Assembly (NCBI GenBank): GCA_028682895.1
Contig: JAJRAK010000057.1
Span: 60,516 to 124,515, forward strand
Origin: Methanomassiliicoccales archaeon
GTDB taxonomy: Archaea; Thermoplasmatota; Thermoplasmata; Methanomassiliicoccales; UBA472
Direction of reading: 5' to 3'
Length of the DNA stretch: 64,000 bases
The position numbers and the translations under genes are program-made. The notes beneath the pieces are model-generated. The model was not told where the DNA came from. It worked only from the letters and a program-made list of their open reading frames with translations, and did no database searches. Shown here in pieces: positions 2,048-55,919 of this stretch (positions within the stretch are counted from its first letter, which is position 1; each line of letters starts with the position of its first letter).

Positions 2048-4894
2048 TCACACCTTTCCTTTCCGCAAACGCATCACCGATATCACGGCTACGATTACCA
2101 AAGCTATGGCTATTATTCCTACCATAATCAACATTGTACTATCGTTCTCAGAGCCTGGGGTGTCGTCATCGGGTAGAGGAACGGTTATAGAGGCCGTAGA
2201 AGAATTCTCGCCCTCACCGACCGCGTTCACGGCACTTATCTTGTACCAGTATGTCTGGCCGTTCGTCAAACCTGTATCAGTATAGATCAGGACTGAGGGC
2301 GACGATATCAGTTGATAAGTTCCATTAGAGGTCGTAGACCGATACAGCTTGTAACCAGTTATCGGACTGCCCCCGTTATTGGTCGGAGCGGTCCAGGTTA
2401 AGATCACCTGGGCATTGCCGGCGACAGGATCGAGGTCTTCGGGCGTTCCAGGGACCGTTGATGCGAATTCGAGAAATACACTGATCGGTGAACAATTCTC
2501 ACCCTCACCAGCCACGTTCACGGCGCTGATCTTGTACCAGTATGTCTGACCGTTCGTCAACCCCATATCAGTATAGTTCAGGACCGAGGGTGACGATATT
2601 AGCCCATATGTGCCGTTAGAGGTCGTTGACCGGTATACTTTATATCCAGTGATAGGGCCCACACCATCGCTAGCTGGGGCAGACCAAGCCAGATTTACCT
2701 GGTTGCTACTGGCGATAAGGGTCAGCCCCTGAGGGGCTCCGGGAGCCATCGATGCGTATTCAAGGAACACACCAACCGGCGAACAATTGGCCCCCTGACC
2801 GATCGCATTCACAGCACTTACTTGATAATAATAGGACTGATTATTGCTCAGGCCGGTGTCTGTATTGTTTAAGCCGGATAGCGATGCTATGAGACTGTAT
2901 GTACCACTTATCGTGTATGATCGATATATCTTGTAGGCAGTGATCGGACTGTTTCCGTCGATGAACGGCGCCTTCCATGTCAGATTGATCTGATCGCGGT
3001 CGGCGACAAGAGCAAGGTCCCGCGGGATCCCAGGGACGGTAGGCTGCGATGATGGGGTTGCGTTGACCGGAGTGCAATTTGCGCCCTCGCCGACCGTGTT
3101 AACCGTGCTAACCTTATACCAGTATATTTGATCGTTGATCGCATCTGTGTCAGTACAGTTCAGACCTGAGGGTGACGATATCAGCTCAAATATGCCGTTG
3201 GAGGTCGTGGACCGATACACTCTATAGCCAGTGATCGGGTCTCCTCCATCGTTGGCCGGAGCGTCCCATGTCAGGGCTACCTGGGCATTGCCGGCGACAG
3301 GAACGAGGTGGTCAGGGGCTTCAGGGACCTCGGGATCGAACGCGAGGAAGGTGGCGACATATGTGCAATTGGCCCCCTCGCCGGCATCGTTCACAGCACT
3401 GACCTGATAGTAATAGGACCGGTTATTGGTCAATCCAGTGTCTGAGTAGTTCATATCTGAGGTCGAGGCGATGAGATCGAACGGACCATCGAATATCGTT
3501 CTCCTGTATACCTTATAGTTGATGATCGGACTTCCACCATCGCTGATAGGAGCAGCCCAGGTCAGATCGACCTGTTTACTGCTCGAACTTAAGTGAAGGT
3601 CCTGCGGGGCTGTAGGGACTGCGGGCTCTGAGGATACCATTACGATGATCGCAGTGCAATTATCGCCCTCTCCGATCGCGTTTTCGGCGCTTACCTTGTA
3701 ATAGTATTTCAGCCCGTTCGTCAGCCCGGTATCGGTACAGTTCAGAACTAAAGGCGATGAAATCAAGGTAAAGGGGCCGTGGGATGTGGTGGACCGATAC
3801 ACATGATAGATGGTGATGTCACTTCCACCGTTGCGGTCGGGGGCATTCCACGTTAAAAGAACTTGAGCAACGCCCGGATAGGCGAGAAGGTCCTCAGGAG
3901 CCTCTGGAGCTGTTTTAACAAGGTATGAACCCATCTTCAGCCCGTTCCAATTGAAATTAGGCATGGGGAAGTTCGAGCCCGAATAGGCGTGACCCCTTAC
4001 CCCCGCCGGCGTATCCACCATCCAATTTTCATCTACAGATGTTGGGGCAACGAAACCTAGGAAATTTATCGAGGTCAAAGCAATGCAGGACTGGAACACC
4101 TGGCCTTGGATGGTCGTAACGCTACTGGGTATGGTGATGGAGGACAATGCAGTGCAGCCAAGGAATGCCGCTGAAGCAATGGTCCCGACCTTATCACCGA
4201 TATTCACGGAGGTTAAATTGATGCAATGCTGGAATGTATACTGGTCGACCTTTGTGAGGTTGTCGGATATGTTGACCGAGCTGAGGTTGGTACAATATTC
4301 AAAAGCATACCATCCGATCGTACGAACGCTGTCGGGAATAGTGATAGAGGTCAGGGCGGTGCAGTGAGAGAATGCATATTTGTAGATCGTTTTTACACTA
4401 TTGGGAAGGGTGATCGATGTCAGATTTGTGCATTGTTCGAACGTGTTGTACCCTATCGTTAGAACGGTGCCAGATGAGTCGAAGTGCACTGATGATAACG
4501 CTGAACAGTGCCAGAACATAGTGGTACTGATAACCTTGACATCGCTGGGAATATTGATCGAAGTAAGATTGTAACAACTGGCGAACGCACCAAGCCCGAT
4601 CGATGTGACGCTATTGGGGATGACCACAGAGGTCAGTGAGGTGCAGGTATCGAAGGCAGAATCGCCTATGGCCATGACCGTATAACCATCCAATGTGGAT
4701 GGGATGGTTATCGCTCCCCCTGTGCCATTATATCCTGTGATAGTTGCGACGAGCGGACTTCCGCTCGTGGAGTAAGTATAGTCCCCTTCTGTTGCGGCGT
4801 CGACTGTGTCGGTGGAAACAATGAAAAATCCGCTTGATATCAGCATGAATACTAATACCGCAGTTATCCTGAATGACCACTGTCTTTTTTCCAT
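2048..4894 (-). CDS. Large secreted/cell-surface protein: signal peptide, BspA-type leucine-rich repeats, six tandem fibronectin type III domains, C-terminal TM anchor
   Basis: The N-terminus MEKRQWSFRITAVLVFMLISSGFFIV is a signal/TM segment. Repeated ...CTSLTSVVIPNSVTSIGLGAF.SC.NLTSI.IP... units are BspA/LRR_5-like. Six roughly 95-aa units (AP.AP.DL......QV.LTW.AP..DGGSPIT.YKVYRST...G.Y.LI...).NYTDTGLTNG..Y.YKVSAVN.GEG) are Fn3. The C-terminus MLIMVGIIAIALVIVAVISVMRLRKGKV is a TM anchor. Start set at the ATG at 4892-4894, preceded by a G-rich RBS. Confidence 0.8.
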   Translation of the reverse strand: MEKRQWSFRITAVLVFMLISSGFFIVSTDTVDAATEGDYTYSTSGSPLVATITGYNGTGGAITIPSTLDGYTVMAIGDSAFDTCTSLTSVVIPNSVTSIGLGAFASCYNLTSINIPSDVKVISTTMFWHCSALSSVHFDSSGTVLTIGYNTFEQCTNLTSITLPNSVKTIYKYAFSHCTALTSITIPDSVRTIGWYAFEYCTNLSSVNISDNLTKVDQYTFQHCINLTSVNIGDKVGTIASAAFLGCTALSSITIPSSVTTIQGQVFQSCIALTSINFLGFVAPTSVDENWMVDTPAGVRGHAYSGSNFPMPNFNWNGLKMGSYLVKTAPEAPEDLLAYPGVAQVLLTWNAPDRNGGSDITIYHVYRSTTSHGPFTLISSPLVLNCTDTGLTNGLKYYYKVSAENAIGEGDNCTAIIVMVSSEPAVPTAPQDLHLSSSSKQVDLTWAAPISDGGSPIINYKVYRRTIFDGPFDLIASTSDMNYSDTGLTNNRSYYYQVSAVNDAGEGANCTYVATFLAFDPEVPEAPDHLVPVAGNAQVALTWDAPANDGGDPITGYRVYRSTTSNGIFELISSPSGLNCTDTDAINDQIYWYKVSTVNTVGEGANCTPVNATPSSQPTVPGIPRDLALVADRDQINLTWKAPFIDGNSPITAYKIYRSYTISGTYSLIASLSGLNNTDTGLSNNQSYYYQVSAVNAIGQGANCSPVGVFLEYASMAPGAPQGLTLIASSNQVNLAWSAPASDGVGPITGYKVYRSTTSNGTYGLISSPSVLNYTDMGLTNGQTYWYKISAVNVAGEGENCSPISVFLEFASTVPGTPEDLDPVAGNAQVILTWTAPTNNGGSPITGYKLYRSTTSNGTYQLISSPSVLIYTDTGLTNGQTYWYKISAVNAVGEGENSSTASITVPLPDDDTPGSENDSTMLIMVGIIAIALVIVAVISVMRLRKGKV
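2100..3900 (-). repeat. About 290-bp tandem coding repeats (six copies) encoding the Fn3 domains of the surface protein
   Basis: Near-identical DNA segments, for example cttgtaccagtatgtctg[g/a]ccgttcgtcaa at about 2230 and about 2530. The protein shows six Fn3 units. Confidence 0.7.
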
Positions 4895-5350
4895 ATTGAA
4901 TTCCCCCCACTGTCCATTATAATTCAAATGAGTTGACATTATCATTGTTTAGAGGAGACTATAAGACTATGCTGTCGAAAAAATTCTACGAAATCAATCA
5001 ATCAAGGCCAATTCATGACGAAAAATCTGCTTAAAGTTTGCCATAAGAACTCTTGCATTCCATACAAGATTCCTGTGCAAGAACAGCGCGAGTGCCGTAA
5101 AAAGCTCAGCAACAACCCACTGGCCTGATCCTTTCATATCGACGGGTCCATCGATAATCATCGAAGAAACGATCGATGCGGACCATAATAGGTACGGTGA
5201 CATGACGATGTTAGTACTGGCATGTAAAATGAATGTTGGGCCAGCTCTGGTAATTTTTTATAAGTCTTGCATTGCATGGATCCTTTCCTTTTGTGTCAAT
5301 CAAAATAAACATATATTACATGTCATCTTATGGTGATAATGGTGATATAG

Positions 5351-5710
5351 GTGAGCAATACACCGGCGAAATACGACGTAGAGTACAAATGGCTCCGAGA
5401 GGAGACTCGGAACGGAACATCGGAAGGTTGGTTAGAGAAAGTACGTGAAACATTGTCCGCCTTACTCCGGAGGGTCGGCAAGGCCGATGACAGCGAAGGG
5501 TCCGTGGACAACCATGTTCGATTGGAAGGGATGTCGAGATTGGGATTGGTGTTGCAATCATTAGGAACGCTTTTGCTTTTGGTTATGCTCATGCCAAAAT
5601 GGGACGTGCCCATCATTTCCTGCTTCGTGGCGGTGGTCGCAGGTGAAATCATTATTATCAACTCCCTATGTCATCACGGATGTGATATCCGGGGAGAGCG
5701 GACCAAATGA
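5351..5710 (+). CDS. Hypothetical protein with C-terminal hydrophobic segment
   Basis: GTG start at 5351 preceded by GGTGA. 119 aa. Hydrophobic stretch LGLVLQSLGTLLLLVMLM. Stop overlaps the start of the next gene (ATGA). Confidence 0.35.
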   Translation: MSNTPAKYDVEYKWLREETRNGTSEGWLEKVRETLSALLRRVGKADDSEGSVDNHVRLEGMSRLGLVLQSLGTLLLLVMLMPKWDVPIISCFVAVVAGEIIIINSLCHHGCDIRGERTK

Positions 5711-6087
5711 CCAACGTGACCATCAGAGGAATCGACGATGCCGTGTATGTTCAGTTCTCTGCGGAGGCCACCCTCAGGGGCATGGCCATCGGTGACCTTA
5801 CCACTCAGGCCATGGCCGAGTTCCTCGAGAAGAGCAGGGGACCTATCTATAGGATCTGGAACCTGGATGAGCTGACGGTCGCAGCGAACGATCTCAGGAC
5901 CATCGACGGGGTGGTGAACATCAGCAACATCGATAAGCTGGAGTTCGAGAAGGACGTCACCTGGGATGACATCAAGGACCGAATCCAGATAATCGAGAAC
6001 GTTGATAAGCTGATCGTCCCGAAGACAATATCGAAGTTTCAGATATTGACCAAGGTCAAGAACGTCAGCAGCATCAAGTCGGTCTGA
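5707..6087 (+). CDS. Ribbon-helix-helix (FitA/VapB-like) N-terminal domain protein with about 80-aa C-terminal extension
   Basis: N-terminal MTNVTIRGIDDAVYVQFSAEATLRGMAIGDLTTQAMAEFL matches the beta-alpha-alpha RHH antitoxin/repressor pattern (compare FitA VVIRNLSEATHNAIKFRARAAGRSTEAEIRLIL). Translationally coupled to the upstream ORF. Confidence 0.45.
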   Translation: MTNVTIRGIDDAVYVQFSAEATLRGMAIGDLTTQAMAEFLEKSRGPIYRIWNLDELTVAANDLRTIDGVVNISNIDKLEFEKDVTWDDIKDRIQIIENVDKLIVPKTISKFQILTKVKNVSSIKSV

Positions 6088-36389: not shown

Positions 36390-37481
36390 TCATTTTTTCT
36401 TTCGAGCCTTACCGATCGCGTCCGCAGCTAGCATAGCATCGAGCACTTTTTTGGGTGATATCGCACCTGCCTCGTGATGGATCGGCTGACCGGGGGCGCA
36501 TGCTCTTTCCGCCGCGATCATCACCCTTTCTCTGCTGGCGTCTTTCAGCCCGATGTCCGCCAGCGTGGTCGGAAGGCCGACCTTCTCGCAGAATGAGCAT
36601 ACGGCCTCGATCTCCTCAGATGGGGCTTTTGTGAGCTGGAGTCCGGCCAGCACGCCGAAGGCGACCTTCTCGCCGTGGTAGAAAGAGTGGGTCTCCTCCA
36701 ATGCGGTCAGACCGTTATGGATGGAATGGGCCGATGCCAATCCAGCACTTTCGAACCCCAGCCCGCTCAGCAGTATGTTCGCCTCGACGATGCGATCGAA
36801 TGCGTTCGTCACAACCCTGTTCTCGCTGTCGACCTTGGCCTTTGCACCGTGCTCCATCAACGTCTCAAAACATAGTTTGGCGATGTGAAGTCCCGCCGCG
36901 GTGCCATATCCACCGCACTCGTTCGCCGAGTGCGTTGCCTCGCATGACCGAGCCTCGAACCATGTTGATAGCGCGTCCCCCATGCCGGCCACTAGGAAAC
37001 GTGTCGGCGCCGCCACGATTATGTTCAGATCTACCAGTACCGCCGCTGGGTTCATCTTCTGATAGTATACCGATTCGAACGTTCCTTCGTTCGAGTACAA
37101 TACTGCGCATCCGCTGCACGGTGCATCGGTGGAAGCGATGGTGGGGACGACCATCACAGGTATGCCCATCATATCAGCGGCTATCTTCGCCGTGTCGATG
37201 GTCTTGCCGCCCCCCATGCCGACCAGCACCTTGACCTTCTTTTCATGGATGATCTTCGATATCCGAGCTATCTCATCTTTACAGCACTCACCGCGGAACG
37301 GTTCAGTGTTGATATTATGAGAATTCAGGTCCAGACCACATTCGGGAAGCACCTTTTGGATCACCGTGGGAGAGGCCAATATTAGCCCCTGTCCACCGAG
37401 CAGATCGACCAGTGATGGCAGTTCACCGATTGCTCCGACGCCTTGAATGTACTTACCGGGAAAGACCGCCTTCTTGAACAT
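36390..37481 (-). CDS. Glycerol dehydrogenase / iron-containing alcohol dehydrogenase family (COG0371; could be GldA or G1P-dehydrogenase-like)
   Basis: LVGMGGGKTIDTAKIAA is the GGGKTIDTAK fingerprint of GldA-type dehydrogenases. The His metal ligands are conserved. Confidence 0.65.
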   Translation of the reverse strand: MFKKAVFPGKYIQGVGAIGELPSLVDLLGGQGLILASPTVIQKVLPECGLDLNSHNINTEPFRGECCKDEIARISKIIHEKKVKVLVGMGGGKTIDTAKIAADMMGIPVMVVPTIASTDAPCSGCAVLYSNEGTFESVYYQKMNPAAVLVDLNIIVAAPTRFLVAGMGDALSTWFEARSCEATHSANECGGYGTAAGLHIAKLCFETLMEHGAKAKVDSENRVVTNAFDRIVEANILLSGLGFESAGLASAHSIHNGLTALEETHSFYHGEKVAFGVLAGLQLTKAPSEEIEAVCSFCEKVGLPTTLADIGLKDASRERVMIAAERACAPGQPIHHEAGAISPKKVLDAMLAADAIGKARKKK

Positions 37482-37550
37482 GTGAACACCTGTAATTGCA
37501 CCATTCTAGTTTATTATTTCAGCCGGACCGTACCCCATGCATATCCAGTA

Positions 37551-38405
37551 TCAGACCTGATGTATGATGATCAGGCGCCAAGTGATCCCGTGGGAGCCTA
37601 CGGTCGTCCAGTAGCACTCCTTGTCCACTACCGTATCATCGCCGAGGCTGATCAGATAGGAGTATGTGCCGTGACCGGTAGACTCGTTGACCAGTCTCCG
37701 ACCGATATCCTGGACCTCTGGATAGTCCACATAATCGGTGATGAGGTTCATTCCGATCTGTGCTGTGTCCGTATCATAGATATCGGTCCCGTCCAGTTGA
37801 GCACAGAAGAATGCGAACTCAGTTCCCTCCAGGAGATGAGGGAGCGTCCCGTTCATCAGCGCTGATGCGGAGAACAAAGCGCTGACAGCGCCGATGAACT
37901 GGCCATCTGCGTCGAAGACCGGGGCAGCGAACACCGCGCCTGTCTCGCCCTCGGTCGATGAGAACACCTCGCTCATGACCGGCATCTTTGTCGTAAGCAG
38001 CTTGACGACGGTCTCCTGCGCGCTCAGGTTCGTCCCTTCCAGGGATCTGCACGCCTCTGGTTCCGCGGCCATCACCATACCGTTGATGTCATAGGTGATG
38101 ATGTCCAGGATGTACGCGTTGGACTCGAGCGCTGCGATGAGCTTCGCCCTTACTTGAGTACCGTTCAGACCCAGGGTCGAGATGTTCATGCTGACGTTCG
38201 ATACGAGGGCGTCGACCTTCTTGATCTGGCCTTGCACGGCCATCTGCGCCTTGCTGAGGACCTCGTTCATCTGCAGTCGCGTCGAGGCGGACGATCCATC
38301 CTGGTCGAGCCGTGCGTTATCCGAATAGAGCAATACGGAGACCGTGGCCGAGACGAGGAGAAGGACGAGCAGCAGAGCGATAGGTCGGTCGAGGCGCATC
38401 TTCAT
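37551..38405 (-). CDS. Membrane-anchored extracellular sensor-domain protein (Cache/PDC-like)
   Basis: N-terminal TM (IALLLVLLLVSATVSVLL) followed by about 250 aa of extracytoplasmic sequence with Cache-like features. No output domain. Confidence 0.4.
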   Translation of the reverse strand: MKMRLDRPIALLLVLLLVSATVSVLLYSDNARLDQDGSSASTRLQMNEVLSKAQMAVQGQIKKVDALVSNVSMNISTLGLNGTQVRAKLIAALESNAYILDIITYDINGMVMAAEPEACRSLEGTNLSAQETVVKLLTTKMPVMSEVFSSTEGETGAVFAAPVFDADGQFIGAVSALFSASALMNGTLPHLLEGTEFAFFCAQLDGTDIYDTDTAQIGMNLITDYVDYPEVQDIGRRLVNESTGHGTYSYLISLGDDTVVDKECYWTTVGSHGITWRLIIIHQV

Positions 38406-38545
38406 GGCGGCCGGATGGGCCGAAAAGGTATTCAATATTAATGCCTGGATGGCCGACCGTTGGGTTATTCCCGAGGTCGTATGTATGTAGAATCAAAGTG
38501 TGGCAATCGTAACATAACCTTTTTCAGCGAAATTGACGATGCCCT

Positions 38546-39919
38546 TTGCCAGGTTCCCTACCAATGACCTCGATCATAGATATGCTGGTCGTCCTGACAG
38601 AGATGATCTGCGTCATCATTGTTGTCGCTTATGTCGTGACCCGCACCGAGTTCTTTCATGATGCCTTGAAAGGTAAGGTCACTTGGAAGGGCGCCTATTT
38701 CATGATCATCCTCTTCGGCCTGCTCTCGATATTCGGCACTTATTCCGGCCTGGACATCCTCGGTGCGAAGGTGAACGTGCGCGACATCGGACCGATGATC
38801 GCGGGCCTGATCGGAGGACCGATCGTCGGACTGGGCGCCGGGCTCATCGGGGGATTGCACCGGCTCAGCATGGGAGGCATCACGGCTGTGCCATGCTCCA
38901 TCTCCACCGTGCTCGCTGGCCTGTTCGGCGGGATGATATATCTCAGCGCTCACCGTCGCTTCGTCGGCATAAAGGGGGCGGTGATATTCGCCGTGCTCAT
39001 GGAATCGCTCCATATGATCATCAACCTGATCCTGGTGCAGCCCTGGTCGACCGCCTGGTCGATCATAAGCAACGTGGCGCTCCCAATGATCTTCGCCAAC
39101 GCCCTGGGCATGGCCGCCTTTTCGTTCATCGTGTGGAACCACATCCATGAGGAGGAGACGAAGGATGACAGGGACCGTCTGAACGGTGAACTGCAACGGG
39201 AGAAGGCGGAGCTGGAGATGGCCAAGGAGATCCAGCAGAGCATTTTGCCCAAGCATCTGCCTGAATGGGGCGGCTACTCGATAGCCGCCATGAGCCGCCC
39301 GGCGCGGGAGGTCGGGGGCGATTTCTACGACATGTTCCCGATGCAGAACGGGGAACGCACCGTTATCATCGCCGATGTGTCCGGGAAGGGCATGCCGGCG
39401 GCACTGTACATGGCCGTGTCCCGCACGGTCATGCGTGTGGCGGCGGCCTCCACCACCGACATAGGCGAGCTGCTGAGCAAGGCCAATGTTGAGCTGGTGA
39501 ACCAGTCGGACATGGGCATGTTCGTCACCATGTTCGGCATAGAGCTGAACGATGAGGGCGATATCGATTTCGCCAACGCCGGGCATAATCCCCCGATGCG
39601 CGTCGGTCCGTCGGGGGTCAGCTTCCTGCCCGAGGGCGGCGTGGCCATGGGCATCACGCCCGAAGCCGTCCCCTTAGCAGGGAGCATCAGGCTGGATGTC
39701 GGAGAGATGATGATACTCTACACGGACGGCGTGACCGATGCTGTTGGACCGAACGGGAAGGAACTGGGCGAGGAAGGTTTCAGATCGGCCGTCGTTGGTC
39801 TTTCAGGAATGAACGCCAATGACGCCCTGCAGCGGTTGATCGAAGCGATCGATAAGCATACTGGTACGGAACCTCAGTACGATGATATCACCATAGTGAT
39901 CGTCAGGAGGGAGGCGTGA
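38546..39919 (+). CDS. 5TM-LytS-type membrane sensor fused to PP2C/SpoIIE-family serine phosphatase (RsbU-like)
   Basis: Five N-terminal TM helices. C-terminal GGDFYDMFPM...IADVSGKGMPAALYM...GHNPPM...YTDGVTDA are SpoIIE/PP2C motifs. Confidence 0.8.
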   Translation: MPGSLPMTSIIDMLVVLTEMICVIIVVAYVVTRTEFFHDALKGKVTWKGAYFMIILFGLLSIFGTYSGLDILGAKVNVRDIGPMIAGLIGGPIVGLGAGLIGGLHRLSMGGITAVPCSISTVLAGLFGGMIYLSAHRRFVGIKGAVIFAVLMESLHMIINLILVQPWSTAWSIISNVALPMIFANALGMAAFSFIVWNHIHEEETKDDRDRLNGELQREKAELEMAKEIQQSILPKHLPEWGGYSIAAMSRPAREVGGDFYDMFPMQNGERTVIIADVSGKGMPAALYMAVSRTVMRVAAASTTDIGELLSKANVELVNQSDMGMFVTMFGIELNDEGDIDFANAGHNPPMRVGPSGVSFLPEGGVAMGITPEAVPLAGSIRLDVGEMMILYTDGVTDAVGPNGKELGEEGFRSAVVGLSGMNANDALQRLIEAIDKHTGTEPQYDDITIVIVRREA

Positions 39920-39922
39920 GAG

Positions 39923-40360
39923 ATGCCTTCCTGTGAGATCAGATGCACCACCCTGCCCTCGTCCATACCGGAGGTCCATGATCGTATAGACCGGTACCTG
40001 GCGACCATGGACGTTGATGAAGGTCTTTCATCTGACCTGCACGTCGTCATTGACGAGCTGGCATCGAACATTGAGAAGTACGCCTATGATGGGCGCCCTG
40101 GCATCTACACCGTCCGGATAAGAAGGACGGAATTGTGCCTGGAGATCGAGCTTGAGGATGAAGGGAAGGAGTTCGATCCCACCGGCGTGGAAGAGACACC
40201 TGTCACAGGTGATGTTGACCGTCCTATCGGTCATCTAGGCATCCTGCTGGTCAAGAGGATCGCCAACGGTCTGAGCTATTCCAGGCATGACGGCATCAAT
40301 GTCACCGCTGTCGTCATGAGGATCCCGTACAAGAACAACATACATGAGGGAGATCGATGA
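39923..40360 (+). CDS. Anti-sigma-factor-type serine kinase (RsbW/SpoIIAB-like HATPase_c_2)
   Basis: VIDELASNIEKYAY (N-box) and ELEDEGKEFDP; 145 aa. Confidence 0.75.
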   Translation: MPSCEIRCTTLPSSIPEVHDRIDRYLATMDVDEGLSSDLHVVIDELASNIEKYAYDGRPGIYTVRIRRTELCLEIELEDEGKEFDPTGVEETPVTGDVDRPIGHLGILLVKRIANGLSYSRHDGINVTAVVMRIPYKNNIHEGDR

Positions 40361-40471
40361 TTTCAGCGAACATCGTCCGGAGGGATTAACATCCAGGTCA
40401 AGAACGTTAAGGAAGACAATGTCATAGTTTTAGAACCGGAGGGGAGGATAGACTCCTCGTCGGTCGGTGTC

Positions 40472-40738
40472 ATGGACGATGCGTTCCGTCAGGCGTTCTC
40501 CGATGGAGCGCTGTCCTTGCTGGTGGACATGAGCAGGGTCGAGTACATCAGCAGCGGTGGCCTGCGCAGCTTCCTTCTGGGCTTCAAAGAGATAAAGAAG
40601 AAGGAGGGAAAGATGGTCCTTTGCGCACTGAGCCCCAGCGTCAGCAAGGTGTTCAAGCTCTCCGGGTTCAACACCATCTTCGACATCGTACCAGGCCGAG
40701 AGGATGCCTTGGTCAAATTGCGCCTGGGCTCGCCATGA
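40472..40738 (+). CDS. STAS-domain anti-sigma-factor antagonist (RsbV/SpoIIAA-like); annotated ATG start probably too short
   Basis: YISSGGLRSFLLGFKEIKKKEGKMVLCAL is the STAS core including the conserved Ser in the SSG motif. The reading frame continues upstream to the TGA stop of rsbW and encodes the missing first beta strands (INIQVKNVKEDNVIVLEPEGRID). Confidence 0.7.
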   Translation: MDDAFRQAFSDGALSLLVDMSRVEYISSGGLRSFLLGFKEIKKKEGKMVLCALSPSVSKVFKLSGFNTIFDIVPGREDALVKLRLGSP

Positions 40739-42405
40739 AGGACCATGCTTGGTACGATGTGCCTGGCGCTCCAGGCGTGAGGATATTTCCGTTCATCCGC
40801 AAGCCTGACGTGGTCTGCTGCAATTCGTATATCATCAAGGCCCCTGGCCACATCATGGTCATCGACCCGGGTGCGGACCAGACGCAGATGGAGGAGATAT
40901 TGAGGATGCTCCGAGATCTGTCCGGGGATGGGATGGAACGTGTGACGTTCTTCCTGACGCATTGTCATGTCGATCACTGCTATGCTCTGATGAAGGGCAT
41001 CGGAACGTCGATGATGCCAGATGGAGTGATCATGCTGGCGCAGGCCGAGGGCGCTAAAGCATTGCGGGAATATGATGAGGATGTCACCCAGGCACGGGTG
41101 ATGGGCTGGGACTTCCCTCCGGTCGAACTGCAGGTCGAGCTACGGTCCCTGCTGACCGGAGACATGCCGGACGAAGGCAAGGTCGTCCAGTCCACGCAGA
41201 TGCAGGAGATGGGCACCGCAGAAGGGATGAAGATAGGTTATCAGAGGATACCCCTTGGAGAGGGGCTGGAGATGGTAGCGTATCATACGCCAGGACATTC
41301 CCCGGACAGCGTCTGTTATCGATTGGGGCGGCTCATGTTCACCGGTGACCTGCTCTTCGCCACCGACCCTGGGATAATGGGCTCCGTCGGTTGGGACCGG
41401 GATGCCATGGAATCGTCGATACGCAACGCGTCCTGGCTGCTCGAGCATGAAGGGATAGAACTGTGCCTACCGGGCCATGGATATTGCGTTGAGACCGCCA
41501 AGGCCAGAACGATGCTGGAACGAATGCTGAAGGAGGTCCGCAATATTGGCGCTATCAAGACCAAGGACGCGGAGCGCATCCGTTTCACCTCCAACTACGC
41601 CCTGGACATGCTGGAGGAGGCGAACGAGAACTTCAGTGTCATCGCCGGGCGGCTCTATTATCTGGCATATCACCTTGAGGACCTGGAGGAAGGCAGCGAG
41701 GCGCGCAAGTACCTGGACATGCTGGAGCATGACCGGATCGACGAGATGCTGACCTCGTTCAATCGCTTCGTCGAGGAGTTCCACGCCGGCAGAAAGCTGC
41801 AGCTCCAGGTCACCATGAAGGCGGTGCAGACGATGAACAGCATCAACGCCATCTTCAAAGGGAGCGACCTGGAGGCGGTGATGGACCGTTCGCTGATCTC
41901 TGGAACGTCAAGATTGCTCAAGGACTTCATGAACGCGGTGAAGGGCATAGAGCTTGACGTCGTTCACGAGGAACGCGACCTCCGGTCATTGGTGCAGGAG
42001 ATCGTGGAGGACCAGACGGCCCGGCCGGAGGACGACATAATGGATTGCCTGGATGACCCGGAACGATACGCATCGGCCCTGGCCCGCCGGATCGCCCATA
42101 TCCCTGTCTTCGATGATATCGAGCTGCACCTGGAAGGCGACGGTGCAACGACGATGCTGGACCCCAAGCGCTTCCAGGACTCGCTGTCCGGTCTGTTCTT
42201 GGACCTGGCGGGCTCGGACGTGAAGAAGATCGTGCTTCGCCTGGATGGAACATCTTTGGAGATCGGGACGGACGTCGATCTGTCATCGACCGTTGGGGAA
42301 AAGAAGGTCCGCGCGCTCTCACGCCGGTTCGAGCTGGCCGGAGCAAAGCTATCGGTCATCGATGGTGCCCACTGGCACTGCAGGATAGAATGCGACCGTC
42401 CTTGA
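40735..42405 (+). CDS. Metallo-beta-lactamase-fold protein with about 300-aa C-terminal extension
   Basis: THCHVDHCYA is the HxHxDH motif. Start MKDHAWYD overlaps the STAS stop (ATGA). The C-terminal region has a weakly kinase-like pattern (LFLDLAG...). Confidence 0.6.
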   Translation: MKDHAWYDVPGAPGVRIFPFIRKPDVVCCNSYIIKAPGHIMVIDPGADQTQMEEILRMLRDLSGDGMERVTFFLTHCHVDHCYALMKGIGTSMMPDGVIMLAQAEGAKALREYDEDVTQARVMGWDFPPVELQVELRSLLTGDMPDEGKVVQSTQMQEMGTAEGMKIGYQRIPLGEGLEMVAYHTPGHSPDSVCYRLGRLMFTGDLLFATDPGIMGSVGWDRDAMESSIRNASWLLEHEGIELCLPGHGYCVETAKARTMLERMLKEVRNIGAIKTKDAERIRFTSNYALDMLEEANENFSVIAGRLYYLAYHLEDLEEGSEARKYLDMLEHDRIDEMLTSFNRFVEEFHAGRKLQLQVTMKAVQTMNSINAIFKGSDLEAVMDRSLISGTSRLLKDFMNAVKGIELDVVHEERDLRSLVQEIVEDQTARPEDDIMDCLDDPERYASALARRIAHIPVFDDIELHLEGDGATTMLDPKRFQDSLSGLFLDLAGSDVKKIVLRLDGTSLEIGTDVDLSSTVGEKKVRALSRRFELAGAKLSVIDGAHWHCRIECDRP

Positions 42406-42412
42406 CGGCCCC

Positions 42413-42646
42413 CTACTTCATCAGGGACAGCATGTCCTCTACCCTTTCGCCCATGTACTTATGGGAGTCCATGACCCCTTGGTTATAGAACTCCGGCGCC
42501 AGCTTGTCGATGATGAAGTCCAGTATGAAACCTGAGGCAAGCTGGCCTATCTCCTCTCCCCTCTCGTTCAGGAAATAGGACCTGATGTCAGCGACCATCT
42601 CGTCCCTCTTTTCCTTTTCCAGTTCGATCTTGCATTTACCCTTCAT
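42413..42646 (-). CDS. DUF2164 family small protein
   Basis: MKGKCKIELEKEKRDEMVADIRSYFLNERGEEIGQLASGFILDFIIDKLAPEFYNQGV matches the DUF2164 pattern. Confidence 0.5.
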   Translation of the reverse strand: MKGKCKIELEKEKRDEMVADIRSYFLNERGEEIGQLASGFILDFIIDKLAPEFYNQGVMDSHKYMGERVEDMLSLMK

Positions 42647-42944
42647 GGACCGTTCCCCACCCAGGTATGCTGTCATTCACCGAGTGGTTCTTTAAAGGTC
42701 GGATGAACCGGGGAGATGTCCGAGCTTGGGGGCCGTAGGTCAGTATCGATCGATGCTGACACGGACCGTTGTTCCATTCGGGCTGGCCTTGTTATTTTTA
42801 TAGTATCACATTCCATATAATATTACAAAATTAGTCATATAGCTACTCTATTCTAGTTTCTTTAGTTAAATAGCTAATAAATTTCTTTAAAAACAACAAT
42901 CGTCTATCAGGTCCACTTCGAATATTCTTTCAGGTGAGATCATA

Positions 42945-44903
42945 ATGGAAGCAGATATCAATGACCAGACGGTCTCGTCAGATCATTTCACCCCCAAGGT
43001 CGAGATGGCGAGCGGACTGTCCAAGGAAATCACCTTATTGCGTATCCCGGACCTCCGGGTCATCTCAGGGGAAGGCGAGAAGCGCCTCTACACCAGGGAC
43101 CAGGCGGACGTCCCGAGCGTCGTAAAGGACACGCTGATCCAATATCGACCGGACGCTGTGGTACAGCCATCGACGGCCGAGGCCACCGTGGCATTGTTGC
43201 AATATGCCCGCGGTCGCGGACTGGCCGTCATCCCCCGTGGCTCTGGCTCATCCCCGTTCGGCGGATCGATACCGGTCAACGGAGGGATCGTTCTCGACGC
43301 TGGGAACCTGAACAAGGTGCTGGACGTAGATGTGAAGAACAAGTGCGTGAAGGTGCAGGGCGGATGCCGGTGGGCCGATGTGGACCATGAGCTCTCCAAG
43401 CACGGCCTGCGCATCATCTCGTGCCCGTCCAGCCGGTTCTCGACCGTGGCCGGATGGATATGCGGCGGCGGCCTGGGCGTCGGTTCGCTGGGCGGGGGAC
43501 ATCTCAGCAAGAACATCATCTCCATCAAGATGGCGACCGGCTCTGGACTTATCGAGCTGATGCCGCCGCAGGAAGAGTTCAAGGCCGTCTTCGGCAGCGA
43601 GGGGCAGTTGGGCATCATTGTCGAGGCCACCCTCAAGGTGAAGAGCATAGACAGCGCCTCCAAGCCCCATTTCCTATTGTTCAAGGACCTTGATGGTGCG
43701 GTGGACGTGGCCGAAAGGCTGCGACGCCTTTCCGCGCTTCCAGAGGACCTTATCTACTTCTCACCTGGCAAGCTCCGTTACGCCAACAAGCTGCTCCATG
43801 GTGAGCACTTTGGAGAAGGTCACGCCCTTCTGGTGACGTCCTCGGACCAGGCATCGGAGGATGCCATCTTGGGATTGCTCTCGTCGACAGGCATCACCGA
43901 GGAGAAGGAGTACCAGGCCAGGCTGCTGATGCATGACCGTTACTTCCCCATGAAGCTCAGAAGGCTGGGGCCGGGCATGATGGGAGCGGAGGTGCTGGCC
44001 CCGATGCCTAAACTGAAGGACATACTGCATCGGGCCGAGGACCTTTGCCAGGAGTTCGACCTGGACCCGCTGCTGGAGGTCCATGTCATGCAGGGCCAGG
44101 AATCGCTCCTGCTCTGCTACTATCTCACAGATCAGTGCAATGATTCGCTCTATCTGCTCGACGCCGCCAAGTCGATGATAGTGACCTCGGCCCTGATAGA
44201 GATAGGCGCCAAGCCCTACTCCCTGGGCGTCTGGAACAACTCCTTCGTCGATCACTGGCCGAAGGAGGAGATGAGGAGGTTGAGACGGGCCAAGGACAAG
44301 CTGGACCCGTCCGGCATGATGAACCCGGGCAAGTACTTCGCCCTGAAGGGCAGGATGTTCGGTGCCGCCGGTATGCTGTTCAGTCCCCGCGGCTCCGGCA
44401 TGGCCTTGGGACTGATGGCCAAGCTGCATATGCCCCTGTCACCTGTATTGCGCACCGCCTCCAAGGTGACACGCAAGCTCGTGCCGTCAGAGGGACGCGA
44501 TATGCTCGAGGAGATGGTCAACCAGTGCGCCATGTGCGGCGCCTGTGTCAGCGTCTGTCCCGCCTATGCCCTGACCAAGGACGAGAGGGTCACGGCCCGC
44601 GGAAAGTTATTGATGGGAAGGGACCTGGCAGAAGGGAGGGACATCACCAAGGAGAGCGCTCACCGCGCCTTCCTCTGCATGAGATGCAAAGCATGCGAGC
44701 AGGTATGCCAGTCCAAGCTGGACCTCATACCTGCGTACGATGAGCTGGAGTCCCGCCTTGAGAAATTGTTCGGAAAGGATGCTGCGGAGATCGAGCATTT
44801 CATACGCATAGCTGAACTGAGCCCTAAGTACGACGAGATGGTGGCGCGCGGTCTGGTGCTTGGCGCCCCCAAGAACGGCATGGGAGGCGATCGCCGTGTA
44901 TGA
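42945..44903 (+). CDS. FAD-linked oxidase (GlcD/D-lactate dehydrogenase-like, FAD_binding_4) with C-terminal 2x[4Fe-4S] ferredoxin domain
   Basis: AVIPRGSGSSPFGGSIPVNGGIVLD is a PCMH-type FAD site. C-terminal CAMCGACVSVCP and CMRCKACEQVC. Confidence 0.75.
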   Translation: MEADINDQTVSSDHFTPKVEMASGLSKEITLLRIPDLRVISGEGEKRLYTRDQADVPSVVKDTLIQYRPDAVVQPSTAEATVALLQYARGRGLAVIPRGSGSSPFGGSIPVNGGIVLDAGNLNKVLDVDVKNKCVKVQGGCRWADVDHELSKHGLRIISCPSSRFSTVAGWICGGGLGVGSLGGGHLSKNIISIKMATGSGLIELMPPQEEFKAVFGSEGQLGIIVEATLKVKSIDSASKPHFLLFKDLDGAVDVAERLRRLSALPEDLIYFSPGKLRYANKLLHGEHFGEGHALLVTSSDQASEDAILGLLSSTGITEEKEYQARLLMHDRYFPMKLRRLGPGMMGAEVLAPMPKLKDILHRAEDLCQEFDLDPLLEVHVMQGQESLLLCYYLTDQCNDSLYLLDAAKSMIVTSALIEIGAKPYSLGVWNNSFVDHWPKEEMRRLRRAKDKLDPSGMMNPGKYFALKGRMFGAAGMLFSPRGSGMALGLMAKLHMPLSPVLRTASKVTRKLVPSEGRDMLEEMVNQCAMCGACVSVCPAYALTKDERVTARGKLLMGRDLAEGRDITKESAHRAFLCMRCKACEQVCQSKLDLIPAYDELESRLEKLFGKDAAEIEHFIRIAELSPKYDEMVARGLVLGAPKNGMGGDRRV

Positions 44904-54839: not shown

Positions 54840-55919
54840 CTAATGCTCCGCCGACCTGAACGTGAGGTCGAAGCGCGTGCCGCCCCGGGGATCGTTGATT
54901 AAAGAGATGTTTCCCTCGTATCGCTCCATCGTCCGCTTCACCAGATAGAGCCCGAGCCCGGTGCCGCGTTTCGATCCGAAGGAGACGCCTTCCATGAATA
55001 TTCGGTCGACATACTCGGACGGTATCCCCTTCCCGTCGTCCCATACCGATAGAACGGTACGCCCGTTGTGCCTGGCGATCTTGAACTCCATGCCGCTGGC
55101 CTGACCGTGCTTCTTGGCGTTGCTGACCAGGTTCTCGATCACCGCACGGAGCGCCGGGTCGGCCAGTACCTTGGCGTCGCCGTCCATCACATAGAGCATT
55201 TCCATGGACGGTAGCACCGTTTCCACGACCTCCTTCAAGCTGACCGGTGTCAGTTCGTTGTTGGATAGGAGGAAATGGTCCAGTTCGCGCATCTGGGTGA
55301 TTATGACCTGCATGTGCTGCAGTGATGTCTGCGCCCGCTCCAGGTCCCTTGACTTTCCGCCGACCACGTAGAGGTCCAGGGAGGAGCTGATTATCAGCAG
55401 CTCGTTGGCGATGTCGTGGCGCAATATCTTGTTCGCCACGCTAAGAGATTGAGAGAGGTTCGTCAGCTGTGTACGGGACTCGTTCAGCTCCTTCATGTAC
55501 TGTATGTTGGACAGCGCCATGTCCAATGCGTCGGGGATGGTGAACAGCAATGATAAGGAGGAATTGAGATCGTTCGGGTTCCTTACTCCGTCGGCCATGA
55601 GCACGCCGATCCGCTTCCCCTTGCTTTTGAGGGAGAGCACGAAGCCCTTCTTGGAGGGCAGAAGCTTGATGACCTGGTCCGGAAGCAGTCTGGCCTCTGT
55701 ATGCCATTGATCACAGTTGCCCATGACCTTTCCCTCCCGGAGGTCCTCCGGGATGTAACAGATCTGTTCCGGATGATAGATGCTGGCGATCGTGTCCATC
55801 ACGGCATGGATGGCCGATTCTCTATCCTCTGCCTTCTGCAGGGTACGGAGCAGGTCCAAGAAAATTGGATGATACGAACTGCCCTGATCGGTCATCAACA
55901 TAAAACGAAAAAAATACAA
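54840..55919 (-). CDS. Sensor histidine kinase (GAF-like N-terminal domain, HisKA, HATPase_c)
   Basis: H-box ILRHDIANEL, N-box ENLVSNAKKHG, G-boxes DDGKGIP and GTGLGLYL. Confidence 0.75.
   Translation of the reverse strand: MYFFRFMLMTDQGSSYHPIFLDLLRTLQKAEDRESAIHAVMDTIASIYHPEQICYIPEDLREGKVMGNCDQWHTEARLLPDQVIKLLPSKKGFVLSLKSKGKRIGVLMADGVRNPNDLNSSLSLLFTIPDALDMALSNIQYMKELNESRTQLTNLSQSLSVANKILRHDIANELLIISSSLDLYVVGGKSRDLERAQTSLQHMQVIITQMRELDHFLLSNNELTPVSLKEVVETVLPSMEMLYVMDGDAKVLADPALRAVIENLVSNAKKHGQASGMEFKIARHNGRTVLSVWDDGKGIPSEYVDRIFMEGVSFGSKRGTGLGLYLVKRTMERYEGNISLINDPRGGTRFDLTFRSAEH

Follow-up and report, generated by a model that had tools for sequence, protein, structure and literature searches.

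AUU is an established start codon in bacteria, and infC, where it serves the autoregulation of IF3, is the archetype of a conserved AUU start. The +1 frameshift site of prfB (RF2) consists of a Shine-Dalgarno (SD)-like element, the codon CUU and the stop UGA, with a spacing of 3 nt, and genes with programmed frameshifts typically have in-frame alleles in relatives. In engineered bicistronic designs the leader open reading frame (ORF) carries a second SD. Archaea are known to use termination-reinitiation where stop and start overlap or nearly adjoin; the last 15 nt of the upstream ORF are enough and an SD is helpful, not essential (PMC6728339, PMC10666635). The locus described here is the junction between an rsbW-like kinase gene and the gene of a STAS antagonist in a Methanomassiliicoccales archaeon. 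It lies in a stretch of 64,000 nt (contig JAJRAK010000057.1, positions 60,516 to 124,515 of the forward strand), referred to as the window. The STAS gene has no canonical start codon, and a conserved mini-ORF sits in front of it. The best explanation is that rsbW and STAS are separate genes joined by a translational relay. Full-length STAS may be made by termination-reinitiation at AUU 40385, with a probability of roughly 0.5.

Layout and conservation of the rsbW-STAS junction

As the first-pass annotation of the window had said, the TGA at 40358-40360 closes an RsbW-like ORF (39923..40360); this was confirmed by reading the sequence directly. Past the TGA the same frame reads FQRTSSGGINIQVKNVKEDNVIVLEPEGRIDSSSVGV, then reaches Met 40472 and ends at the stop at 40736-40738. 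None of its 37 codons between 40361 and 40471 is ATG, GTG or TTG, and the ORF lister places the STAS start at 40472. A run of this length free of canonical starts would arise by chance with a frequency of about 0.15 (own estimate), which is not rare alone. The recurrence of the start-less layout in eight distinct orthologous sequences exceeds chance. One feature had escaped the earlier annotation: an out-of-frame ORF of 10 codons begins at 40357, with an ATG that shares bases with the rsbW stop (ATGA). The elements of the junction are as follows.

39923..40360, + strand: RsbW-like serine kinase / anti-sigma-type HATPase, 145 aa (Pfam HATPase_c_2 PF13581, 2.6e-15)
40346..40352, + strand: SD1, GAGGGAG, predicted ribosome-binding site of the mini-ORF, 4 nt before ATG 40357 and within the rsbW 3' end
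40357..40389, + strand: mini-ORF MISANIVRRD, 10 codons and a TAA; start at the ATG overlapping the rsbW TGA, STAS at +1
40379..40383, + strand: SD2, GGAGG, Shine-Dalgarno-like, inside the mini-ORF, 1 nt before ATT 40385 and 7 nt before ATC 40391
40385..40387, + strand: ATT, proposed non-canonical STAS start; its final T doubles as the T of the mini-ORF stop TAA (ATTAA)
40387..40389, + strand: TAA, mini-ORF stop
40391..40393, + strand: ATC, alternative restart codon, separated by 1 nt from the mini-ORF stop before it and by 7 nt from SD2
40385..40738, + strand: proposed full STAS gene (anti-sigma-antagonist-like), 117 codons plus TGA, supported by Pfam STAS, AlphaFold2 and purifying selection
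40448..40450, + strand: ATA, apparent start of GenBank MDD1772895.1 (96 aa, MDSSSV...), not the biological start
40472..40474, + strand: internal Met (residue 30) of STAS, the first canonical ATG of its frame but not the start; TTA in L165 and L167

The RsbW-like protein is 100% identical to NCBI MDD1772894.1 and the adjoining STAS protein is MDD1772895.1. GenBank starts the latter at the non-canonical ATA 40448; its annotator likewise had no canonical start to use. The rsbW and STAS frames coincide because the mini-ORF lies 1 base upstream of the rsbW frame and STAS 1 base downstream of the mini-ORF. Their continuity is thus a by-product of two cancelling junctions. The mini-ORF explains the in-frame continuity, and it also raises a +1 frameshift as an explanation that the first-pass annotation did not have. 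Three kinds of overlap, ATGA, TAATG and TGATG, join the rsbW stop to the mini-ORF start among the orthologues, and all of them shift the mini-ORF one base upstream of the rsbW frame.

A protein search with STAS found about 30 homologues. The close ones carry ragged called starts (VKEDNV, LEPEGR, MTILEPE, MDEAF...), which suggests that the start is missing throughout the clade. Scans of genome and metagenome contigs with the STAS alignment gave one useful relative, found as L001 and L081 (68% identity); the rest were distant bacterial and archaeal STAS loci. The orthologous junctions were aligned on the invariant GRIDSSS motif and are ungapped from the mini-ORF start through STAS; homologues P0001, P0008, P0013, P0016, P0017 and P0027-29 were left out of this alignment. 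The start-less layout is represented by eight distinct sequences from 11 contigs, window included, taken from ENA, Logan, JGI and NCBI assemblies. At the position of ATT 40385 the orthologues fall into four classes.

Frame-broken, no canonical start (window, L161/162, L163, L168-170, L171, L172, L173, L174): ATT; the mini-ORF stops on the ATT
Frame-broken, canonical start (L165/166, L167): ATG; the mini-ORF continues 8 codons past the ATG
AGT, fused (L164): AGT; 1 nt fewer before the G-run, which brings a GTG at the mini-ORF position into frame (MRIIGGSGIQVK)
AGT, still broken (L175): AGT; the mini-ORF stop is at the same position

One alignment column thus holds ATT in eight sequences, ATG in two (L165/L166 and L167) and AGT in L164 and L175, and the interchange of ATT with ATG is the pattern of a conserved non-AUG start. 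Gene callers begin the L165/L166 and L167 proteins at precisely this ATG (MSIQVR, MGIQVK). In the ATT class the stop is followed by one base and then by ATC or ATT, the Ile of IQVK. Only TTG in L174, which lacks an SD, provides an in-frame canonical codon upstream in any orthologue.

The mini-ORF is present in all 10 other orthologous sequences with a frame break, and an SD-like motif (GGTGA, AAGGAG, GGGTGA and similar) stands upstream of its ATG in every orthologue. Its geometry is constant, ATG TCA ... NGG RGG NAT stop, with 9 codons counted from ATG-TCA. The start, length and stop position are conserved and the peptide is not: the ratio of nonsynonymous to synonymous change (pN/pS) is about 0.8, and over codons 2-6 it is at about this value in every frame. 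All 11 sequences have GGRGG, its four G columns showing zero entropy, and it is kept whatever its frame; L001 has GGGGGGG 9 nt before its ATG. The stop stands at an identical position in all nine frame-broken sequences without ATG (TAA in five, TAG in one, TGA in three). In the same nine, the stop overlaps the proposed restart codon (ATTAA) or lies 1 nt before ATC, the spacing of a coupled pair. Such a pair would also have a canonical downstream start, and the window and seven other sequences have only ATT or ATC there. An AUH codon occupies the 40391 position in 12 of 12 sequences.

The window and its closest relative L161 have ATT TCA where other lineages start the mini-ORF with ATG TCA. In these two the mini-ORF has 10 codons, not 9, and the ATG one codon upstream, which overlaps the rsbW TGA, took over. 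The mini-ORF stop of L161 is TAG (2989-2991), and termination there might be inefficient if Methanomassiliicoccales decode some TAG codons as pyrrolysine; in the window TAG closes 10 of the 48 long ORFs. The junction motif GGRGGNATTRRNAT has a second exact match in the window at 55557-55570. That copy lies antisense within a histidine-kinase-like ORF (54840..55919, minus strand), is within chance expectation, and was set aside.

The ATT itself appears to be under selection. ATT makes up 4% of the Ile codons in the genome, and still it is invariant in the eight sequences. The last mini-ORF codon, which overlaps it, is NAT in all the ATT sequences, against a codon bias that favours GAC and AAC (GAT is used in 34% and AAT in 23% of their codon pairs). 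By parsimony ATT would be ancestral, with two changes against three (own reading of the alignment). Where ATT was lost, the outcome seems to have been either rescue by in-frame fusion with the mini-ORF, as in L164, or degradation of the N-terminus, as in L175, the sister of L164, and both would support a restart at AUU. In L175 the ratio of N-terminal to body identity is 0.46, compared with 0.61-0.75 in the others; an otherwise invariant Pro is changed and the body is normal.

The L001/L081 locus has a different arrangement. Its rsbW stop and mini-ORF start form ATGA, the mini-ORF, which contains the GGGGGGG, reads MNVIWSQSGGL with the stop TGA, and after a 3-nt gap (GCT) follows a normal STAS ATG (L001 3046 region). 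Judged by this arrangement, the leader mini-ORF is older than the loss of the canonical start. The mini-ORF thus appears to be an independent, older unit, and the L001/L081 arrangement a plain coupling cassette. No mini-ORF is present at the more distant Methanomassiliicoccales STAS loci L002, L005, L082 and L083, which begin with an ordinary ATG or TTG; the device is therefore specific to the clade.

The segment upstream of Met 40472 belongs to the fold, as the first-pass annotation had proposed. Pfam STAS (PF01740) matches the extended frame with E=1.8e-15 over profile positions 5-106 of 106, beginning at residue 16; the product started at ATG 40472 matches only positions 41-106. An AlphaFold2 model from ATT 40385 has a pLDDT (predicted local distance difference test) of 93.8 and a beta-beta-alpha-beta-beta-alpha-beta-alpha topology. 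In it beta1 spans residues 4-10, beta2 13-22 and alpha1 27-39, with Met 40472 as residue 30. The two strands are coded by 40394-40450, and the 96-aa GenBank product lacks beta1 and most of beta2. Over 40388-40441 purifying selection is confined to the STAS frame, with a pN/pS of 0.36-0.50; the other two frames give 1.1-1.8, and the body gives 0.22. This substitution pattern indicates that the N-terminal segment is translated. The product (M)NIQVKNVKEDN... is a typical STAS N-terminus, and the real STAS product almost certainly includes beta1-beta2. The STAS alignment also contains an invariant VEYISSGGLRS, a candidate phospho-Ser motif (D/Y-x-S-S-G).

Termination-reinitiation at AUU 40385 and the competing explanations

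In the proposed relay, ribosomes that end rsbW at TGA 40358-60, or that bind SD1 (40346-52), would initiate the mini-ORF at ATG 40357. They would read its 10 codons, which contain SD2 (GGAGG, 40379-83), and terminate at TAA 40387-89. Without leaving the mRNA, the small subunit would then begin again at +1 on a codon that is not a canonical start. Most likely this is AUU 40385-87, an invariant codon whose last base is also the first of the stop (AUUAA), with AUC 40391 as the alternative. The product would be a full-length STAS of 115-117 aa, (M)NIQVKNVKEDN.... Such a restart would use AUU and the initiator tRNA and would depend on termination of the mini-ORF, and a weak start of this kind may set a low or regulated STAS:RsbW ratio. 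Leaderless initiation of STAS was ruled out, there being no AUG.

Several points weigh against this proposal. SD2 lies 1 nt from ATT, compared with the 4-10 nt or so usual in the genome and its relatives; AUC 40391 thus suits it better, and a restart at AUU does not account for how strictly it is conserved. The literature searched does not document AUU or AUC initiation in archaea, and a 2025 review of translational coupling makes no mention of AUU or near-cognate restart codons. In E. coli raised IF3 inhibits both initiation at non-canonical codons and SD-less re-initiation (PMC2268962). Strict coupling of stop and start cannot hold everywhere, since in the ATG variants the mini-ORF continues for 8 codons beyond the ATG. 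L175 is a weak test: it is a single case, and its lesion also turns the putative P-site codon of a frameshift, the last of the mini-ORF, from GAT into GAG and the ATC into ATA. A restart at AUU is not told apart from its rivals by this case.

The first-pass annotation had offered three explanations for the uninterrupted frame: a kinase-antagonist fusion by TGA read-through, a sequencing or assembly error, and initiation at a non-canonical codon such as ATT 40385. The last is now the best supported, with ATT invariant in eight sequences and ATG in its place in two orthologues; the other two have fallen. Expression of STAS very probably involves neither read-through, nor an error, nor a truncated protein. 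Read-through or recoding of the TGA (as selenocysteine, Trp or Gly) would yield an RsbW-STAS fusion and would fit the single stop that separates the two in a shared frame in the window, L161, L168, L172, L173 and L174. It is hardly conceivable even so, and as a conserved mechanism it is already refuted. The TGA is a genuine stop: TGA is the main stop here, closing 33 of the 48 long ORFs in the window. Instead of a sense codon at the TGA position, the orthologues have TAA (L168), a tandem TAA-TGA (L171) or an rsbW in a different frame from STAS (L163, L164, L165, L167, L175), and L165, L173 and L175 have further STAS-frame stops upstream. The linker (FQRT...) is unconserved in the STAS frame, and the apparent Cys in homologue P0004 is just the mini-ORF ATG-TCA read out of frame. 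The RsbW homologues found are all of 117-148 aa, with no natural RsbW-STAS fusion among them. The SECIS (selenocysteine insertion sequence)-like hairpin suggested as a check was not found either: Rfam gave no match at E<=1 and no SECIS on 39800-40900, and consensus folding of eleven junction sequences gave -1.8 kcal/mol with no covariation and no conserved hairpin. By that folding result there is no SECIS element, no frameshift-stimulating structure and no hairpin masking a ribosome-binding site. Artefact or decay, whether through an indel or false stop in the assembly, through loss of function as a pseudogene or through a STAS shortened to begin at ATA 40448 or ATG 40472, would account for the ragged, truncated starts that gene callers assign to most close homologues, for the 96-aa product in GenBank and for L175, which appears to have shifted to a downstream GTG. 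It is very unlikely against the recurrence of the same frame structure in 11 contigs from four independent assembly sources, at 70-90% identity and including one contig of 1.96 Mb. An independent JGI contig moreover encodes a 99%-identical RsbW, likewise of 145 aa and ending ...HEGDR. A truncated STAS would lack beta1, beta2 and the start of alpha1, the supposedly untranslated segment is under purifying selection, and the internal Met is absent from L165 and L167.

The two remaining explanations keep the mini-ORF and move the point at which STAS is entered. A programmed +1 frameshift at the mini-ORF end is the main rival; it is possible, on the doubtful side. Translation would begin at ATG 40357, and some of the ribosomes would skip one base while NAU occupies the P site and the stop the A site, with GGAGG upstream, to give MISANIVRRD-NIQVK..., about 126 aa. 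It alone gives SD2, the NAT and the stop each a role. An ORF1 with an SD and ATG, a stop of any type at the same position, and an ORF2 at +1 make up the geometry of all nine frame-broken sequences, with an invariant SD-like element just 5' of the stop and a last codon, NAT, kept against codon bias. L164, different by 1 nt, reads through from a GTG at the mini-ORF position (MRIIGGSGIQVK), and L175 has GAG for NAT together with its degraded N-terminus. One objection is that a tRNA for Asp, Asn or Tyr that sits on NAU in the P site could not re-pair with AUU at +1. Another is the place of the SD-like element: no spacer parts it from the P-site codon (0 nt, against 3 nt in prfB), and to judge from ribosome structure it would sit in the E site, where it could not pair with the rRNA tail during the shift. 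The eleven junction sequences have no conserved downstream structure, the mini-ORF peptide is not under amino-acid selection, the protein of the ATG variants has no extension, and L001/L081, with a separate mini-ORF ahead of a normal ATG, needs no frameshift. Earlier shift sites (AUC-N-GGA, RGG-R) carry no lesion in L175, whose N-terminus decayed. Such sites had been suggested by L164, for AUC-N-GGA, and by the variation of TCN TCN GGN GGN, which falls on STAS-frame third positions. The early shift at AUC-N-GGA was dropped: the apparent STAS-frame periodicity at -12..-1 is due to the invariant GGRGG, TCN TCN alone has no clear three-base periodicity, and pN/pS over mini-ORF codons 2-6 is similar in the three frames. 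Transcriptional slippage was ruled out by the interrupted G-run (GGAGGG) of the window and several orthologues. The prior for a frameshift is also low, because a 2021 review reports a single programmed frameshift in a cellular archaeal gene, of the -1 type, and none of the +1 type (PMC8211752). In the other alternative, which is unlikely, the small subunit would slide about 7 nt after the TAA, pair with SD2 and start at AUC 40391, giving (M)QVKNVK... of 115 aa. The 7-nt gap between SD2 and AUC is like that of normal genes in the genome and its relatives, and the +1 nt from stop to AUC is a typical coupling distance (PMC10666635). All 12 sequences have an AUH codon at this position, SD2 of L001 sits 9 nt before its ATG, the layout parallels engineered bicistronic-design cassettes with a leader ORF followed by the target gene (PMC5995908), and the fold stays intact, beta1 beginning at the next residue of the AlphaFold2 model. 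A restart at AUC leaves unexplained the invariance of the A and T of ATT (40385-86) against codon bias and the canonical ATG of L165 and L167 exactly in the ATT column. The rescue of L164 and the decay of L175 after loss of ATT are likewise unaccounted for, L175 also having the presumably weaker ATA, and the Ile at 40391 could simply be a conserved beta-strand residue.

The operon and its surroundings

The junction lies inside an operon of four genes (38546-42405), of which the first and last are listed here.

38546..39919, + strand: membrane 5TM-LYT sensor fused to a SpoIIE/PP2C phosphatase, first operon gene (Pfam 5TM-5TMR_LYT 9.7e-47, SpoIIE 1.1e-38)
40735..42405, + strand: metallo-beta-lactamase (MBL)-fold protein, 556 aa, last operon gene (Pfam Lactamase_B 6.5e-15); its ATG overlaps the STAS TGA (ATGA)

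The phosphatase probably starts at ATG 38564 (MTSIIDML...) and not at TTG 38546 (457 aa), its orthologues being of 451 aa. The MBL gene almost certainly starts at ATG 40735 and not at TTG 40621, a codon within STAS, in another frame, from which the longest ORF of the MBL gene runs, because the orthologues are of 556-562 aa and have the ATGA overlap. Pfam covers only its first 217 or so residues, and the gene is syntenic in every orthologous locus that reaches that far. Gene order is as in the window in L161, L162, L165, L169, L171, L172 and L174. The phosphatase-kinase-STAS-MBL operon is strictly syntenic across the clade, including L161, L165, L172 and L174. The phosphatase, RsbW and STAS appear to form a partner-switching module made of ordinary family members, and the MBL-fold protein is perhaps a candidate target of its output.

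The operon is flanked (36390-38435, 42413-44903) by genes for an Fe-dependent alcohol/glycerol dehydrogenase, a dCache-type sensor and a DUF2164 protein, all on the minus strand, and for an FAD (flavin adenine dinucleotide)-binding/4Fe-4S oxidase. These neighbours are all syntenic in L161 and most of them in L162. Elsewhere in the window, tRNA-Leu(CAG) at 1919-2003 is the only tRNA, and a few kb downstream of it the GC content dips to 0.475 (4001-6000), compared with about 0.56 elsewhere.

The locus is a real case of conserved non-standard gene expression that current annotation misses. Gene callers and GenBank mis-annotate STAS across an archaeal clade, with ragged starts and truncated products of 73-110 aa. 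What they miss would be a natural, evolutionarily stable gene without a canonical start that is expressed by way of a leader mini-ORF. It offers a test bed for AUU/AUC reinitiation and for +1 frameshifting in Archaea, both poorly documented there, and natural ATG, in-frame-fusion and decayed variants exist for comparison. A weak or termination-dependent antagonist start may set the RsbW:STAS stoichiometry, a key parameter of partner-switching circuits. Were a +1 frameshift the true mechanism, it would be the first in a cellular archaeal gene, would proceed without P-site re-pairing and with any of the three stops, and might tune the antagonist:kinase ratio to termination or translation status.

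Comparison with known systems

Selenocysteine recoding differs from this junction on each point compared: the rsbW stop is TAA or tandem in orthologues, or the rsbW frame differs, and there is no SECIS. Like the prfB site, the junction combines a short ORF1 that has a start of its own with an SD-like element on the 5' side of an in-frame stop; the body lies at +1, and one relative, L164, has an in-frame allele. It differs in having no slippery P-site codon (GAU, AAU or UAU, and GAG in L175), an SD-like element at 0 nt and not 3 nt, and any of three stops. In addition, the host, an archaeon, has aRF1 alone, and no autoregulatory tie to termination is evident.

A close parallel to the proposed restart is found in the termination-reinitiation pairs of archaea and bacteria (ATGA/TGATG; Huber et al. 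2019, PMC6728339; PMC10666635). As in those pairs, stop and restart overlap or are 1 nt apart and an SD lies inside the 3' end of the upstream ORF; the rsbW/mini-ORF and STAS/MBL junctions of the same operon are classic ATGA. The proposed STAS restart codon however is not ATG, GTG or TTG, and no NTG start could form the 5-nt overlap ATTAA. Upstream stands a mini-ORF of 9-10 codons and not a protein gene, and SD2 is 1 nt from the ATT. As in infC, a rare AUU is kept from species to species where a regulatory gene begins, and some relatives have AUG in its place. Unlike infC, the locus belongs to an archaeon with eukaryote-like initiation factors and to an unrelated family, apparently depends on a mini-ORF, and has no known autoregulation.

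The engineered bicistronic design (PMC5995908) has the same succession of SD1, a short leader ORF with SD2, and a stop that overlaps or adjoins the gene start. L001/L081 is a natural version of it with an ordinary ATG. The STAS device differs in that it is natural, stands between two operon genes, and has, in this clade, a second cistron that lost its canonical start. To our knowledge, archaea have no sigma factors. The proteins nevertheless resemble those of the RsbW/RsbV and SpoIIAB/SpoIIAA modules: a HATPase_c_2 kinase, a single-domain STAS protein with a YISSGGL phospho-site region, and a SpoIIE/PP2C phosphatase. What sets this module apart is its archaeal host and its gene order, phosphatase, kinase, STAS and then a conserved MBL-fold protein.

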